A stretch of 63,154 bases of DNA, counting the filler, from Licmophora abbreviata (taxonomy: Eukaryota), in the NCBI GenBank assembly GCA_900291995.1. It is 5 parts of 5 records of this genome, joined end to end, with 100 filler letters (N's around TTAATTAATTAA, not from the genome) between each part and the next. Parts side by side here need not be neighbours in the genome. Positions count along the whole stretch, not along the records: positions 1 to 25,067 come from OLMU01001194.1; 4 more parts are not named here. One strand, written 5' to 3'. The notes below the pieces were generated by a model. The model made no database searches. It was not told the DNA's origin and saw nothing but the letters and a program-made list of their open reading frames with translations. The translations under genes and the position numbers were made by a program. Positions 3 through 7,037 of this stretch are shown here, one piece after another; positions within the stretch are counted from its first letter, which is position 1; each line of letters begins with the position of its first letter.

Positions 3-3000
3 CGCGTCGGGGTCTGTGCGACGAATACAAAACATGTCGCAGATGGACCCCGTCGGGCTTGGACCGTAACGAGGTGGGATCCACCACCGAAGGCCAGAAT
101 CGCGGACAGTCGCCTCAACAATCTTACCGGGCAAGCATGCCTTCCCTCCGACTTTTCGTCCCCACGAACTTGAATTGTCGAGAACCTTCGACTGCACAGT
201 GCCATCCCAGCCTTCATCGGTGTCGACAGACTTCATGGTAAAAAGGCCAGGTTCTAGCTTGGCTTGCAAAGTAGCGGAAGTATCTTCACTCGTGAGCCCA
301 CTCGTCGGCGTTGGCAATGATCTCGGGTCATCGCTGGCTTGAAGTTGACTATCGCAAACCGACTTCAAGAAGAATTCGGCGATGGACAGCGCCCTCCAGC
401 TTCCCTCGAGAACGAGGTCTTCCAGGCCTCTAGCAGCATTGGCGCCGATGAGAATACTGCACTTGCTTTCTGCGCACACGCCATCTATGATCGGTAGCAA
501 ACGATCTTTCACTAGGTCGCTCTGGACACCCACATATGTACGTCTTCGACGAGCACCACTGCCGATGACTTGATATCGACCCGACTCCTCAGAAGTTCGC
601 CGTGGGTCAGTTCCGGAGCGATTACTTTGGCTCATGGCTCGGATGCAGATCTCGCGGATAGCTGGCACTTGCTTCAAGAGTCCTTCGCTGCTTCCAAAGA
701 TTGAGTTTGATGCTCCTTTCCTCACAGCTGAGTTCGTACTCAAAGACTCGGCGATGAGCTCCGCAGACTGTGCGACCTTCATTGGTACCAGAGAAAGCGC
801 GGGGCATAACTTCTCTAGGTCAACAGACAAGAATCCGGCGACGGCGGCAAAAATGTAGTCAATGCCATATTTCAGCCAGAGCGTAGGTCCCGCAGCAAGC
901 ACTGGGGCGCTCAACGCCAAGTCGAGGGCGTTCCTCGCCAGTGGTTCCGCGACGACATGTGTAGCAGCCGGAACTATCCAGTCGATGCCTCGCCAGAAGA
1001 CGTCGTAGCTCAGTTTTTCCAAAATTTCCGCCTCTGCGCTCAGGACACGTTTTTCCTGTATCAGGACTTCTTCACTGGCTCGATCAAACTGCGCGCCCGG
1101 ATAAAAGGCTTTGTACGACGCCTCAAGCAACGCATCCAACTTCTTCCATTTCAAAGCCTTCTGCGCTTTGTTCGCGATGAAAACACTGCCAAGCAGCAAG
1201 TCTCGCGTCTTCATCTGAGACGATGCTGCTTCGTCCTCCGAGACCATGTTCGAGAATCGATACATGATTAGTGCTGCATGTGCTGCTGCGTCACCGTTCA
1301 GTTCCATGCTCGATGTAATTTCAGTTAGTTCGGTGCAGACGCCAGCAATGGCGCGCTGGTCAAAGGGGTTCCTGCTGGAGCTGGACATTCCTCTAGATGC
1401 ACCAGGCGACTTCAGCGAAGCATCAGAGTTCAGCCCACGGGTCGATTTGACAAGAGACCAGTCCCGCCCGAATACCCAGTTCTGCTGACGAGTACAGTGA
1501 TCACGATAAAGCTCAATTTGAAGACGGATCAGCTCTTCGGCAACCGCCACGCGGCCGCTTTCTGGCCAAGGACTGTTGTTCAGGCTTGGCGGGTCAGTCC
1601 TCTTCCCGTCAATCCGAAGATGATCTCCTGTCATTGGATCCACCGTCACGGATACGCCAGCAATACTTCCGACATAGTTAAGTAGTTGACTGCCGTTGCG
1701 AAGCAGTAGCGGCTGGTAAATACGATCGGGACCTAGGTGGAGATACTTGACTCCCCTTTCAAGTTCTGACGCGCGAACTTTCACCGATGTCCACAATTTT
1801 GGTATATCTTTTGGAGCGCAGCCAAGGTACACTTTCCGGGGAGCGTTCGGAGCAGCTTCTCCGACTACCTGGCTTCTACTGGGGTCGATTCTTCCCATAT
1901 CGTCCTCAGACTGAACCCAGATTGTGCACCGATGAGAACTTTCGAAAGAGCTGACGAATGTTGACCGACGTAGGTCTTCACTATGGTCTCGATGCGCGCC
2001 CTGGATATCTCCCGCTATTAGACGAAACTCGTCGCTAGTCAATTCGCCTCCAAGAAATCCCAAATCCTCATAGATGCCAGACGGTGCCATGGGAGCACTC
2101 GCTTCCACACAAATCGACACAAGCTGAGTCCATACGTGTTCTTTTGCGCTTTCCACATCGGAGGCAAGGGTACCTTCCAGAAGAAGCTTCGAGAATTGTT
2201 TACTTTTGCTCTCGGAATGCGCAAAAGTTACATTGACGCTACGACAACGGTCTCGAATCATTGGGAGTTTCCGTTTAACAACGTCAACAATGCATCTTGG
2301 AATGATTAGCTCTTCCACGCCACTCCCTGGCGAGGGACCACTTGAAGCCGGCTGTAGCTCACGTTCAATGAATGCCACGTTCTTCTCCAACACCATCAAG
2401 GCCTTGGCGGGACTGAAGCCAGATACAGATAATTTCCATATCATTCCATCTTTGGAAGCCTCCAAAGCCCTCTGCTCCTCCATAGCCTCTTCGTCTTCCG
2501 GTGAAACTGGGGGGAGCACTCCAGTTGGCTTTGAGATTTGCTCAATAGTAATTGTGACATGGCAGTTTTGTTGACATCGCTCGATCAAACTTCGTGAGAT
2601 AAATTGCTCTTTGACAGGGGTCTGTACAAAAATGTAACTCTTCATAGCGCGTAGATGTTCCGCATCAGCAATTTTCAACAAGCTTGAGGTTCCCTTCGCA
2701 TTGAGACTTTTCTTGGTAATGACAAACTGTTCAGCCTCTTCGTCCAGAATCATCCAATCTTCCTTGCTCAAGTCTTCCCAGACTTCTTCCAAGTCGTGTC
2801 GATAAATCACCAAATGCTGTCCGTTCGATTCGTCGTATTTGCAGACATCAGCGGAAAAATACTCATGATTCTCTTCCGACAAAATCTTGATACTTCGATT
2901 GATAATTTCTCTTCCTGCTTGACTTGATGGTGGTTTCATCCAATGAGAGCTCAATTTCCGTTCTAACTCATCTTCCTCCATGGATTTGGGCATTTCCAGC

Positions 3001-3761
3001 GTTCCACGACACGATGGTGTCAAGCAATAACACTTGGTGGGTGCTCGTCCTCGTTTCCGATCCCACTTGTAATCAAACGTCAATTCTTCCCCAGCCGCAA
3101 GGTCCTTGAGGGCAAAGACTCCGGCTCGCTGTACGTCACGGACCTTCCATCGTTCGACACGTGCATTAGGCTCGCACGAGTGATTGATATAGCGCGCAAG
3201 TCCTCCCTTTTTCCGTGCATCGATGAAGACATCGTTGTCCAATGCCATGATGTAGAGCATGCGTTCGTTGCTGTATCTCTTGAACAGGCGATCGAGATAT
3301 GCTTTTTTAATGGCTCGGCCGACGTATTCAATGATGAACTCGCCCTTTTTGATATCCTCCAACACGCGCAGGCCCCTGCCCTTGGGGCCGGCATCAATCA
3401 TTTCGACCGACTTCCATTGTTTCCTTGTGATCCGTTGATTGCCACAGAGAGGACCGCATCGACTGGGACACTCTTCTTGACACGCAAACAGTACGCAAGA
3501 CTCGTCCGTGCAGTGCGGTTCCGTGGAATCGGCGCCCGAGGCCGAGGCACATCCACATACATCCGGCGTTGCGTATCTAGGACGTGGGGCAAGCTCACCT
3601 GTTCCGAATCGATCGTCGCCTTCACAAGGCGGGGCCCACTCGACGTCTGAGATGAGTTCCAGTTCGTCGGGAGGGGCTATTTCTTGCGACACGGCGCGAA
3701 CAGATGGAGGCGGTGCACTGGGTGAGGCAGCACTCGCGTCGATCCTCCTCTGGTTTTCCAT
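3..3761 (-). CDS. SET2/ASH1/NSD-like histone lysine methyltransferase (AWS-SET-postSET) fused to Tudor-like, degenerate KH-like and cyclin-box domains; 3' end runs off the window
   Basis: Manual translation from ATG at 3761; segments checked through to position 3 are open and in one frame (absent from the ORF track, consistent with no stop inside the window). Contains Cys-rich AWS (CTDESCVLFACQEECPSRCGPLCGNQRI), KGRGL, ARYINHSCEPN, ELTFDY and postSET CYCLTPSCRG; later a cyclin-like stretch (ALIMYRF...SVFIANK...AEAEILEKLSYDV). Confidence 0.85.
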   Translation of the reverse strand, partial: MENQRRIDASAASPSAPPPSVRAVSQEIAPPDELELISDVEWAPPCEGDDRFGTGELAPRPRYATPDVCGCASASGADSTEPHCTDESCVLFACQEECPSRCGPLCGNQRITRKQWKSVEMIDAGPKGRGLRVLEDIKKGEFIIEYVGRAIKKAYLDRLFKRYSNERMLYIMALDNDVFIDARKKGGLARYINHSCEPNARVERWKVRDVQRAGVFALKDLAAGEELTFDYKWDRKRGRAPTKCYCLTPSCRGTLEMPKSMEEDELERKLSSHWMKPPSSQAGREIINRSIKILSEENHEYFSADVCKYDESNGQHLVIYRHDLEEVWEDLSKEDWMILDEEAEQFVITKKSLNAKGTSSLLKIADAEHLRAMKSYIFVQTPVKEQFISRSLIERCQQNCHVTITIEQISKPTGVLPPVSPEDEEAMEEQRALEASKDGMIWKLSVSGFSPAKALMVLEKNVAFIERELQPASSGPSPGSGVEELIIPRCIVDVVKRKLPMIRDRCRSVNVTFAHSESKSKQFSKLLLEGTLASDVESAKEHVWTQLVSICVEASAPMAPSGIYEDLGFLGGELTSDEFRLIAGDIQGAHRDHSEDLRRSTFVSSFESSHRCTIWVQSEDDMGRIDPSRSQVVGEAAPNAPRKVYLGCAPKDIPKLWTSVKVRASELERGVKYLHLGPDRIYQPLLLRNGSQLLNYVGSIAGVSVTVDPMTGDHLRIDGKRTDPPSLNNSPWPESGRVAVAEELIRLQIELYRDHCTRQQNWVFGRDWSLVKSTRGLNSDASLKSPGASRGMSSSSRNPFDQRAIAGVCTELTEITSSMELNGDAAAHAALIMYRFSNMVSEDEAASSQMKTRDLLLGSVFIANKAQKALKWKKLDALLEASYKAFYPGAQFDRASEEVLIQEKRVLSAEAEILEKLSYDVFWRGIDWIVPAATHVVAEPLARNALDLALSAPVLAAGPTLWLKYGIDYIFAAVAGFLSVDLEKLCPALSLVPMKVAQSAELIAESLSTNSAVRKGASNSIFGSSEGLLKQVPAIREICIRAMSQSNRSGTDPRRTSEESGRYQVIGSGARRRRTYVGVQSDLVKDRLLPIIDGVCAESKCSILIGANAARGLEDLVLEGSWRALSIAEFFLKSVCDSQLQASDDPRSLPTPTSGLTSEDTSATLQAKLEPGLFTMKSVDTDEGWDGTVQSKVLDNSSSWGRKVGGKACLPGKIVEATVRDSGLRWWIPPRYGPSPTGSICDMFCIRRTDPDA

Positions 3762-4212: not shown

Positions 4213-7037
4213 TTATCCATTGCGGGCTTCTAGCTCCGCCATTACTTCTTCGCATATTCTGTTCAGGTCTCCATTTTCTTTCGCCAATCGTTCTTTCTCT
4301 GCAACTATCGAAGCTATGCTGATATGCGCGGTGTTGCAATTGGTTTTGGCCTCAGCAAGCTTGGCCTGGACATCCGCCAGTGTCTCACGCAACATGTCCA
4401 GTTCTGAGTTGTTCTCCTTCGTTTGCCGTGCGGCGGACGCTTCTGCATTTGCGATGGCTGAAGAACGTAGATTGTAGAGTGAAAAATTGTGGTTAGAGAA
4501 ATGCTGGTCATGGAGACGAGACGGTCCCATTCGGTATCCACAAACTTACTGGCTTTCAGTTGAGCTAGTTCAGCTTTCATTTCCACGTCCTTTGCCGACT
4601 GGTCTTTCTTCGACACCTCGAGATCTTGAAGAGACACCTTGAGATCTCGTTCTAGCTTTGCAACCTTGGAGACGGTCGAATCGTACTCGTGCTTCAGCTT
4701 CATATAATGCTCGTTGGCTTTCCCGAACTGCTCCTCGGCGGCGGCGATCATCTCCTCCTTCGTTCGCTCAACTGCATCTTCGCTCTTTTGTCGCTCCTCA
4801 TCAAGCGACTTTTTGTGTTCCGCTTTCAAACGCTCGATAGACAGTTCCATCGTTCCAGCCACACTTCGAACCAAGGCAACCTCTCTCTTAGCTTCTTCGA
4901 GAAGCGTACGATCTTTTTGGTGTTCTTCCTCTACCGACGACGTCTTTGCAGTCGCCTCGGCAAGTTGAGAACCCAGAGCTGCAATGATGGCGTCCTTCTC
5001 CTTGACAGCCCTTTCCCGATCTCCAGATCGTTGGTTGTGTTCCGCTTCGACCAAATCAAGCTGCGAGAGCATTTCATCGATCTCCACAGTGTGTTTGTCC
5101 TGGACCGCTTTTACCCTTGCCTCGAAATCTGCGTGTTGCTTCTCGGCCTCCCCTTGCAGTGAATGTACCCTTTCAAGTAGCTCTTTTTCGCGTTCACTAG
5201 AATCTGTCGATCTGGAGGCAAGTTCCGTCTTTTCATCTTCGAACTTCCTTTTTAGTGTTTCCAGCTCGATGTCCATTTCCTTTTGACGCGTCTCGATGCT
5301 GTTTTCCAAAAGCTTATACTTCTCTTCGTGTTTTTGGTGGAGTTCTTGTTTTTCCTTCTCGTGACTCTCAAGTAGCTCTGCTCGGATCGTTTCAGTTCTC
5401 TCGTTGGCTTCCTTGGTGATTCGTTCCGCCTCAAGCTGGTGTTCCTTTAGAAGATTCTCTTGGGCTTCGCGCTCCTTGGAAAGACTCGCTTTCAATGCCG
5501 AAATCTTCTCGAGTAATTTGCTCGTTTCTTCCGAGTCTGCAGCTGCCAACCTTTCTGCTTCCTCCCTTGCAAGATGAGTTTCTGTGTCCAGACGTTCTTG
5601 GAAGTTGCGCTTCAGTTCCTGCTTCTCTGCCTCGTGGAAATCAGTGATTTCCTTCACGTTCTTCTCAGACTCGGAGCGATTGATTTCCAATGCAGCGATC
5701 TGTTCCGATAGACTTGTCTTTTCCCCTTCGATTGTTTCGATCTTTTTCGAATGTTCGCCACTGGACGTTTCCATGTCGGCTTCGAGTTGTGCAATCCGGT
5801 CCAGCATTTCTTTCTTCTGCATGGCATTCGCTTCCTCCACCTTCTCGCTTGATTCTCCTGCTTCCTGTTTGGCAGAAGCTAGCTCCTCCTGAAGCTCCTT
5901 GCGAACCTTCTCCAGCTCTTGCTCGTGTTCGTCACGGAACTCCTGCAGCTGGCGTTGAGTCGATTCTTGAAGCTCCATTTTGGCCGCCTCGAGCTGAGAG
6001 ATCTGGTACATAAGATCTTCTCGGACCGCCGACGCCTCACTTGACTCCTTTGACAGTTTGTCTTGCCTCTCTTTCATTTCTTGTCCATGTCGCTCCTTCA
6101 TTTTTTCCTGTTCACATCTCAACGTGTCCAGCTCCTCCTCGTACTCAGCCGCTTGCATCTCTGCCTTTGCCGAAAGCTCCGATATCTTTTCCATAAGTTC
6201 ACTTCGTTCCTTCTCGCTGGACTCCTTCATTGTCTGTTCAAGTTCCTGTTTGGCCGCTCGCAGTTGAGCTCGTTCCGTTTCCAACTGACTTTCCATCTCT
6301 TTCTTGAGTTGCGCAAGCTCCTGTTGATGCTCCCGATTCCACGACTCGCCGTGTTCTGCGAGCTGCTTCTCCGCTTGCCGCTGCAACTGCTCAAACAGTT
6401 GCTGCTTATCGAATTCATACTTTTGGGAGGCCTCTAGTTCCCAGCATTGACGCGCCTCTAGTAATGTCGCATCCAACTTGGCTTGAAAGGTGTCATCTGT
6501 TGGTGTTGGGTGAGGCACGGTCGCGCTGTCGAGGGCAAGCCGGGTTGGAGATGGCGCTGCCGATCCAGCGTGAGCATTCTCCTTGTTTTCATCCTCATCT
6601 CCTTCCGATTTCTGTTGCTGCATGGAGAACTTCTTCTTAAAGGGAGTCGGGAGAAAGTCTTCGTCGCTCGTGCCTTTCGAGGCCGTCTCGGATGGATAGT
6701 CGTGCTCTTGCTGAGCATCGGCAAAGTCTGTAAGGTCGCTAAAGTCTTCGTTTTCGTCCTTTCCCAGAGGCATGACAGGACTGCTGCGAGGACTGCGTTC
6801 CTTTGTTGTGGTGGAAAAGGGAGATTTGAAGTCTTTCGCGGTCGGCGAGTCGGCTGACGTTTCGAGCCCGCCCATCAGGGGTGGCGTCGAATTAAAGAGC
6901 TTGGTGAGTAAACTGTTGCCATTCTTCTTTGACGACGTGGTGGAAGAAGCCGTTTTGGAAGAAGATGACGGGGAAGGTGTGGACGGAATGTCCAGCAGCG
7001 GCTTGGATGCGGAGTCACTGGCCGTAGATGCTGACAT
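4213..7037 (-). CDS. Long acidic coiled-coil protein with TACC-like C-terminus; join(4550..7037,4213..4457)
   Basis: 907-aa E/K-rich coiled-coil ORF. GT-AG intron 4458-4549 restores the frame into an end KENGDLNRICEEVMAEL, resembling the TACC-domain terminus (KENEELTxICDEL). Confidence 0.7.

Follow-up and report, generated by a model that had tools for sequence, protein, structure and literature searches.

A stramenopile SET-domain protein family with a cyclin box and, in its orthologues, a CDK-like pseudokinase

Introduction

Phytophthora encodes a protein, PITG_14137, in which an inactive cyclin-dependent kinase (CDK)-like domain is fused with an N-terminal histone-lysine methyltransferase; its account names P. 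ramorum and P. sojae as the sole species with orthologues (Judelson and Ah-Fong 2010; PMC3019232). The same source describes four CDKs of P. infestans that bear cyclin domains at the C-terminus and an Asp-to-Asn change; these are predicted to be inactive and were reported to be absent from diatoms (PMC3019232). Here we describe a gene that carries a methyltransferase module and a cyclin box in one frame, at positions 3..3761 (minus strand) of a stretch of 63,154 nucleotides from Licmophora abbreviata (GenBank assembly GCA_900291995.1). We refer to this whole stretch, which joins parts of five records, as the window; the gene lies in the part taken from OLMU01001194.1. Its orthologues continue into a CDK-like domain that has lost its catalytic residues, and we propose, tentatively, that cyclin box and pseudokinase pair within the chain as a catalytically dead CDK-cyclin module in the service of the methyltransferase.

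Recruitment of Set2 and SETD2 to transcribed genes goes through the SRI domain, by which they bind the phosphorylated C-terminal domain (CTD) of RNA polymerase II (Pol II). Diatoms carry trimethylated histone H3 lysine 36 (H3K36me3) on active genes, and the available text of a paper on diatom SETD2 reports conserved motifs IV-VII of unknown role, with the words kinase and cyclin absent from it (PMC10421102). For P. sojae, the accessible portion of another report states that no SRI domain was found, calls the way in which H3K36me3 is laid down unclear, and finds that about half of the mark persists without PsKMT3 (PMC10013772). As far as that portion goes, the missing SRI domain and the persisting mark leave room for an enzyme of the present kind.

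The initial annotation of this locus knew of no characterised protein with such an architecture. In the literature that we searched, which lay outside subscription journals, we found no description of the SET-cyclin-pseudokinase architecture beyond the one-paragraph note of 2010, and no mention of the cyclin, KH or Tudor parts of the family. The annotation's statement thus needs qualifying, in that a SET plus inactive CDK-like fusion was already on record, but PITG_14137 is uncharacterised and the available part of its account leaves a cyclin unmentioned (PMC3019232).

Results

The reading frame and its domains

The gene occupies a single uninterrupted frame of 1253 codons, which opens with an ATG at position 3761 and runs along the minus strand to the window edge at base 3. 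Its 3759 bases contain no stop codon, whereas the other frames hold many, in sequence of about 50% G+C. The 3' part of the gene lies beyond the left edge, and the window holds the first 1253 residues only. For the same reason the frame is missing from the open reading frame (ORF) track: it runs off the source sequence and is therefore listed only when open-ended ORFs are allowed. The protein that begins with these 1253 residues is large, of nuclear type and multidomain, and most likely that of a diatom; its domains follow each other in the order AWS-SET-postSET, Tudor, some four KH-like units, double cyclin box and a further KH fold:

2994..3566 (minus strand): AWS-SET-postSET catalytic module of the histone H3 lysine 36 (H3K36)-methyltransferase kind; residues 66-256 (Pfam, PDB sequence matches, motifs)
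2745..2921 (minus strand): five-stranded Tudor barrel of ~60 residues; residues 281-339 (AlphaFold model compared with PDB)
1479..2636 (minus strand): about four KH-like alpha/beta units; residues ~376-469, 482-553, 568-669 and 672-761 (secondary structure of the model)
672..1379 (minus strand): double cyclin box of two tandem five-helix repeats; residues 795-1030 (AlphaFold model, Foldseek, VIA-align)
306..554 (minus strand): fifth KH-fold unit, without a GXXG loop; residues 1070-1152 (AlphaFold model)
3..284 (minus strand): conserved segment leading into the pseudokinase of the orthologues; residues 1160-1253, with the signature GLRWWIPP at nucleotides 74-94

The initial annotation had noticed that one frame, absent from the ORF track, runs from a SET domain into a cyclin-like region, and had placed an AWS-SET-postSET module at ~3570-3000, a Tudor-like barrel at ~2905-2750, several degenerate KH-like alpha/beta segments after it and a cyclin-box-like region at ~1400-640. 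The frame proves to be free of internal stops, and each of these elements lies where it was placed, with the KH-like segments now extended by the unit at residues 1070-1152. Structural statements below refer to two AlphaFold models built from family alignments, one of residues 254-780 (m97b2c2b7b3ef, mean predicted local distance difference test score (pLDDT) 85.3) and one of residues 781-1253 (m04387a581483, mean pLDDT 81.7).

The cyclin box

In the model, residues 795-1030 adopt a genuine cyclin fold, and pLDDT exceeds 90 over most of this region. The 50 best Foldseek matches are cyclins only, led by T1/T2, L2 and K, with cyclin T1 (4imy_B, E 5.6e-5) as the best. Likewise, the top 22 rows obtained with VIA-align are cyclins only (Z 13.2-18.2, ~190-230 residues aligned), headed by cyclin L2 (9qkt_C, Z 18.2, root-mean-square deviation (rmsd) 2.9, 206 residues aligned), T1 (Z 17.0), Ctk2 (16.5) and C (16.4), below which stand cyclins B1, A2 and K at Z ~15.5. 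TFIIB and the Rb pocket were set aside as models for the helical region: matches to them cover one repeat only or reach a Z of at most 12.9, below the 22 two-repeat cyclins.

At the sequence level, the cyclin is visible only by profiles. A phmmer search of the PDB with residues 721-1253 returned no match at E<=10, and Pfam Cyclin_N recognizes residues 808-921 of the window protein with 14.7 bits (E 0.026), or the cyclin part taken alone with 18.3 bits (E 0.002), both below the curated cut-off of 23 bits. When 20 cyclin parts are aligned, namely those of relatives from metagenome loci together with the window's own, 19 match Cyclin_N at E<=0.1, the best at 3.9e-10. A profile of the cyclin part run against PDB sequences found cyclin T2 (E 0.089) as the sole cyclin, with an unrelated ice-binding protein at E 0.26, which does not suffice to assign the cyclin to a subfamily by sequence. 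The label 'transcription-type', under which the initial annotation had listed the region, receives modest support from the L2/T1/Ctk2/C ranking, from the Foldseek order with T1/T2/L2/K in front and from the T2 match, but the lead of these cyclins is small.

Within the first box, the best-conserved stretches are helix 3 (LLANKAQK, with an invariant Lys) and helix 5 (AEAEIL, with an invariant Glu); both residues are invariant in 20 of 20 sequences. A stretch of the second box, GPVLAAGPTLWLKYG, has a conservation of 0.71, slightly above that of these two.

The pseudokinase of the orthologues

Downstream of the cyclin box and the fifth KH fold, residues 1160-1253 contain invariant or near-invariant columns and are modelled with low confidence (pLDDT 45-79). 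A search with residues 720-1253 retrieved 112 relatives, the full-length ones mostly of 1700-2100 amino acids and shorter partial ones included; those with names are mostly diatoms, such as Seminavis, Nitzschia, Cylindrotheca, Discostella, Mayamaea and Epithemia. A kinase Pfam family is assigned to 111 of the 112, SET to 95 and both to 94, and a precomputed list flags Cyclin_N in 12. Upon re-scanning 12 relatives, we found a C-terminal Pkinase domain in all of them (50-80 bits) and an N-terminal SET domain in 11, the remaining one (P0057) being a C-terminal fragment without SET. Between the two, Cyclin_N matches above the cut-off in seven, below it in two and not at all in three; among 22 further relatives it exceeds the cut-off in five.

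The best match, P0002 (1761 amino acids), is colinear with the window protein over 1266 columns at 59% identity. The window protein ends at P0002 residue 1267, and P0002 extends ~494 residues past this edge, the kinase-like domain included, from which we infer that the window gene continues for about 500 residues into a CDK-like domain.

The nearest PDB sequences to the kinase-like part, for which the fragment P0112 and a family profile served as queries, are CDK1, CDK5, apicomplexan Cdc2 homologues, CDK3, CDK2, Pho85 and Fus3. CDK1, CDK5, the Cdc2 homologues and CDK2/3 match at E 1e-22 to 5e-29, and CDK12/13/11 score lower. Aligned to CDK1, LRTFQADQ stands in place of HRDLKPQN and GGL in place of DFG. 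Both the Asp of HRD and that of DFG are missing from 51 of 51 aligned members, oomycetes included, the position of the beta-3 Lys is mostly occupied by Gln, and the Lys and Asn of the catalytic loop are lost as well. Because both Asp residues are missing throughout, the C-terminal CDK-like domain of the orthologues is, by its sequence, a pseudokinase; an active but atypical kinase was ruled out, since four separate catalytic positions are lost.

Other parts of the kinase fold are kept. The 51-member alignment shows no variation at the alpha-C Glu and retains the APE motif together with a CMGC-type C-lobe. A PSTAIRE-type helix is conserved as SP[AS]ALQEM in the orthologues, and this helix (G-F-S-P-A-A-L-Q-E-M) is the top-conserved 15-residue stretch C-terminal of P0002 residue 800 (0.77). 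The activation segment carries a long charged insert. Beyond the pseudokinase, a conserved tail, first basic and then acidic (KRKAML ... DDLYD ... K-rich), closes the sequence of eight of eight aligned members; it may be a nuclear-localisation or partner-binding motif.

Co-folding of the two parts

In solved complexes of CDKs with cyclins, contact is made between the PSTAIRE helix and cyclin helices 3 and 5. When P0002 residues 812-1050 were co-folded with residues 1180-1715, the prediction was graded as 'weak support', with a score of 0.42 against 0.00 for the best of three controls; at least 34% of contacts are common to the runs, and the pLDDT of the partner is at least 74. In the calibration of this procedure, 51 of 78 solved complexes attained the mark, as did 2 of 108 mismatched pairs; scores of up to 0.60 were obtained for no more than 5 of the 78 solved complexes and for every one of the 4 passing mismatches. 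Since the pairing of CDK with cyclin is textbook knowledge, resemblance to solved complexes may account for the pass.

The methyltransferase module

Pfam SET matches residues 128-232 of the window protein at E 1.6e-24, and NHSC, ELTFDY and the post-SET cysteines (CxCxxxxC) are all present in the module, its SAM-binding and catalytic motifs being intact. Its closest PDB sequence is yeast Set2 (7ea5_K, E 5.7e-39), followed by ASH1L, SETD2 and NSD1-3; SET domains of the H3K4 and H3K27 type rank far below these. The SET domain is therefore predicted to be of the H3K36 type and is apparently active.

Among the domains found in enzymes of this kind, SRI, WW, PWWP and PHD gave no Pfam match in the window protein (E<=1) or in 42 full-length or partial relatives scanned; for the window gene, the absence of SRI rests on the orthologues, its own C-terminus lying outside the window. 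Lacking an SRI domain, the protein does not, by its domain content, qualify as a strict orthologue of Set2/SETD2.

Tudor and KH-like folds between and behind

The modelled Tudor barrel superimposes on the Tudor domain of Arabidopsis RDM15 (7de9_A) with Z 9.9 and rmsd 1.0 Å over 58 of 58 residues, at 26% identity. Foldseek likewise finds RDM15 (E 4.4e-4, TMt 0.93), together with the Tudor domains of SMN, SPF30 and PHF19, and Pfam matches to PTM_DIR17_Tudor in relatives are weak.

Of the KH-like units, residues 672-761 form a clear type-I KH fold (beta-alpha-alpha-beta-beta-alpha) in structure comparison, with more than 20 KH chains matched at Z 7-10; the best are MEX-3C KH2 (Z 10.1) and KSRP KH3 (Z 9.0), the others lying at Z 7-9. 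At the same position, relatives have Pfam-significant KH_1 matches (P0167, 49.4 bits; P0278, 48.6; P0170, 47.7). For the two preceding units, Foldseek gives a match to the tandem KH1-KH2 of IMP1 (6qey; E 6e-5, 192 columns). The fifth unit, residues 1070-1152, resembles FUBP1 KH4 (6y24_A, Z 8.5, rmsd 1.7, 72 residues), PCBP2 KH3 (Z 8.2) and at least 12 further KH chains.

The nucleic-acid-binding loop of KH domains is defined by the sequence GXXG. In KH unit 4 this loop reads LRNGS, a degenerate form, and no G-x-x-G occurs in the strings read for units 1, 2 and 5. In two distant members, P0278 and P0269, the stretch between Tudor and cyclin box contains a CCCH zinc finger as well as a KH_1 domain that is significant in Pfam. 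As these members keep both, the KH-like units of diatoms look like degenerate descendants of a real RNA-binding block.

Distribution of the family

A profile spanning cyclin to kinase, searched against 1.84 billion representatives, returned 93 proteins at E<=1e-30. Oomycetes are represented by Globisporangium (Pythium) ultimum K3WW64 (P0222; AWS, SET, Cyclin_N at 28 bits, Pkinase) and Aphanomyces stellatus (P0195; AWS, SET, Cyclin_N at 30.7 bits, Pkinase), and SET with Pkinase, without a Cyclin_N match, is found in Triparma columacea (P0296) and Chrysoparadoxa australica (P0175). In P0278, Pfam alone recovers the full order of AWS, SET, Tudor, zf-CCCH, KH_1 (48.6 bits), Cyclin_N (30.7 bits) and Pkinase, which independently supports the Tudor and KH readings. 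P0074, an MMETSP transcript-derived ORF of 1963 amino acids marked complete, holds SET, Cyclin_N (24.8 bits) and Pkinase; these three domains therefore reside on one mRNA in at least one related diatom. In addition, 25 metagenome loci that encode relatives were retrieved with the patterns G[LF]RWW[IVL]PP[RQ] and S[LM][QN][RP]WP[SP][ED]K, and a protein-language-model search of the Atlas found the family's own cluster, with 67 members, of which 100% have Pkinase and 97% SET.

On the members found, the family is stramenopile-wide, comprising diatoms, Triparma, Chrysoparadoxa and oomycetes; the survey across stramenopiles that the initial annotation had suggested thus recovers the architecture in all four. 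One apparent dinoflagellate member (P0082, EukProt label Alexandrium tamarense) has the catalytic-loop string of Thalassiosirales (Discostella-type) members, and for this reason we treat it as a probable diatom contamination of a dinoflagellate transcriptome.

The relatives go under source names such as 'serine/threonine protein kinase', 'histone-lysine N-methyltransferase SETD2' (a Fistulifera solaris member, for instance, is annotated 'SETD2'), 'nuclear protein SET' and 'H3 lysine-36 and H4 lysine-20 specific'. Not one of these names hints at the cyclin part or at the loss of catalytic residues in the kinase.

The neighbouring gene

Next to the SET gene, at a distance of ~550 bases, lies an ORF of 907 amino acids (4314..7037, minus strand), which converges head-to-tail with it. 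Its product is rich in Glu, Lys and Gln, has a Ser-rich N-terminus and looks coiled-coil.

Discussion

A dead CDK-cyclin pair as a proposed docking module

How might these parts work together? The account that we prefer, and consider quite possible while holding it tentatively, has the cyclin box associate in cis with the pseudo-CDK, so that together they form a dead CDK-cyclin module by which the methyltransferase is docked or regulated. The two would fold back on each other into an intramolecular, catalytically dead pair, which would work as a binding or regulatory module and not as an enzyme. In its preferred version, the module would hold a substrate-like Ser/Thr-Pro ligand, most plausibly the Pol II CTD or another transcription-elongation factor, and bring the SET domain to transcribed chromatin, thereby standing in for the SRI domain of Set2/SETD2. 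The KH units, plus the CCCH finger in distant relatives, might then touch nascent RNA or single-stranded DNA, and the Tudor domain might read a methyl-lysine mark. Taken one step further, stramenopiles at large could couple H3K36 methylation to transcription in this manner, with the dead pair as a CTD or elongation-factor reader that replaces SRI and with KH and CCCH domains holding nascent RNA; we offer this wider proposal as a somewhat doubtful one.

Several points weigh against this account. The kinase-like part lies outside the window and is known from orthologues at no more than 59% identity. The co-folding result amounts to weak support, and family alignments did not enter the prediction. 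By sequence, the pseudokinase is nearest to CDK1/2/3/5, Pho85 and Fus3 and not to the CTD kinases CDK7/9/12, so that a CTD-specific role is not favoured; transcription cyclins, in turn, lead cell-cycle cyclins by only ~1-3 Z units. Nucleic-acid binding by the diatom KH units is uncertain, because their GXXG loops are degenerate. Finally, CTD binding, histone specificity and activity are predicted properties.

Alternative accounts

The initial annotation had suggested that the fusion hard-wires a CDK partner to a chromatin writer. This holds in a literal sense, as a CDK-like domain is fused in cis in the orthologues, but since the catalytic residues are lost in 51 of 51 members, the wiring cannot deliver kinase activity by itself; nor is the partner the expected CDK9/CDK12-like kinase, the cis domain being nearest to Cdc2/CDK1/2/3/5 and not specifically to CDK9/12. 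The annotation's own version would have the cyclin box bind and activate a separate, active CDK9/12-like kinase in trans, so that one complex delivers both CTD phosphorylation and H3K36 methylation and the pseudokinase does something else. Such a partnership would suit a cyclin fold that is nearest to transcription cyclins and that may still possess its CDK-binding face, in view of the invariant Lys of helix 3 and Glu of helix 5; yet the same chain always contains a CDK-like domain, its PSTAIRE-type helix highly conserved, which would compete for this face at very high local concentration, and the co-fold of the protein's own two parts, weak as its support is, scored above its controls. We regard the trans arrangement as unlikely. 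About equally improbable in our view is a cell-cycle switch or decoy, in which the pair would sense CDK-activating kinase (CAK), CKS, CDK inhibitors or phosphorylation of the activation insert, gate the SET domain and thus couple H3K36 methylation to the cell cycle. The kinship of the pseudokinase with cell-cycle CDKs (CDK1, CDK5, Cdc2 homologues, CDK2/3) and the long charged insert fit this idea, as does an expanded repertoire of cyclins and CDKs reported for diatoms in the available part of an earlier study (PMC2872877), whereas the Tudor, KH and CCCH domains point to contacts with chromatin and RNA and not to cell-cycle signalling.

Two further readings would leave the pair without a role or split SET and cyclin into separate products. 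If the cyclin-like and kinase-like parts were relics with no partner-binding role, the protein would be a large ASH1/NSD-like methyltransferase with inert spacers, as might be expected from the loss of every catalytic residue of the kinase and from a Cyclin_N score of the window protein under the Pfam cut-off. Both parts have nevertheless been kept from diatoms to oomycetes, their majority-residue conservation is 0.52-0.54 against 0.50 overall, and the interface elements are among the best-conserved stretches, all of which makes a relic very unlikely. Lastly, that one protein contains both SET and cyclin in L. abbreviata is known from genomic sequence alone, which is a further point against our account, and the long frame might be an artefact that joins two or more genes. 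Set against this are the 3759 stop-free bases in one frame, beside many stops in the others at ~50% G+C, the colinearity of the frame with 94 SET-plus-kinase orthologues, and the transcript-derived, complete ORF of a related diatom (P0074) that holds all three domains; an artefact seems barely credible.

Significance

An H3K36-type writer with a built-in dead CDK-cyclin pair is an uncharacterised stramenopile variant, and the family is a concrete candidate for an alternative device that couples such a writer to transcription. If the proposed pairing is true, it would be a rare natural case of a CDK-cyclin pair kept for binding and not for catalysis, fixed in one chain. Diatoms are major primary producers, and oomycetes count plant pathogens among them; as the family spans both groups, its function would bear on the chromatin biology of a large and little-studied branch of eukaryotes. 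Even if the module is a relic, the finding corrects annotations such as 'serine/threonine protein kinase', 'SETD2' and 'nuclear protein SET'.

Comparison with known systems

The closest described protein is PITG_14137, which, like the present family, combines SET and a catalytically inactive CDK-like domain in one stramenopile protein. It probably belongs to this family, to which we liken it by the accessible part of its published description; our oomycete members, P0222 of Globisporangium and P0195 of Aphanomyces, align with those of diatoms and likewise lack the catalytic Asp. The two accounts differ in that the available description of PITG_14137 mentions no cyclin, KH or Tudor part, and in breadth, as the family described here extends to diatoms, Triparma, Chrysoparadoxa, and Pythium-like and Aphanomyces species (PMC3019232).

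Kinase-like and cyclin domains also share a chain in the cis-fused CDK-cyclin proteins of oomycetes and ciliates. As far as the available description goes, however, those of oomycetes show the reversed order, kinase then cyclin, and have no SET domain (PMC3019232). In the Atlas, clusters of Nucleocytoviricota proteins of ~548 amino acids have Pkinase in 100% and Cyclin_N in 65% of members, which suggests that giant viruses have cis-fused kinase-cyclin proteins as well. As in the present family, both domains lie in one chain, but there is no SET domain, and the likeness is one drawn by the language model only.

With the transcription cyclins (T1/T2, L2, K, C and yeast Ctk2), the family shares the two-repeat fold at Z 16-18 and an rmsd of ~3 Å over ~200-230 residues. 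It differs from them in sequence, with ~12-15% identity, in the position of the box in the middle of a protein of ~1800 amino acids, and in a presumed kinase partner that is dead. With the KMT3-type enzymes Set2, SETD2, ASH1L and NSD, finally, it has in common the AWS-SET-postSET module with intact catalytic motifs, whereas in place of their SRI, WW, PWWP and PHD domains it carries a Tudor domain, KH-like units, a cyclin box and a pseudo-CDK.

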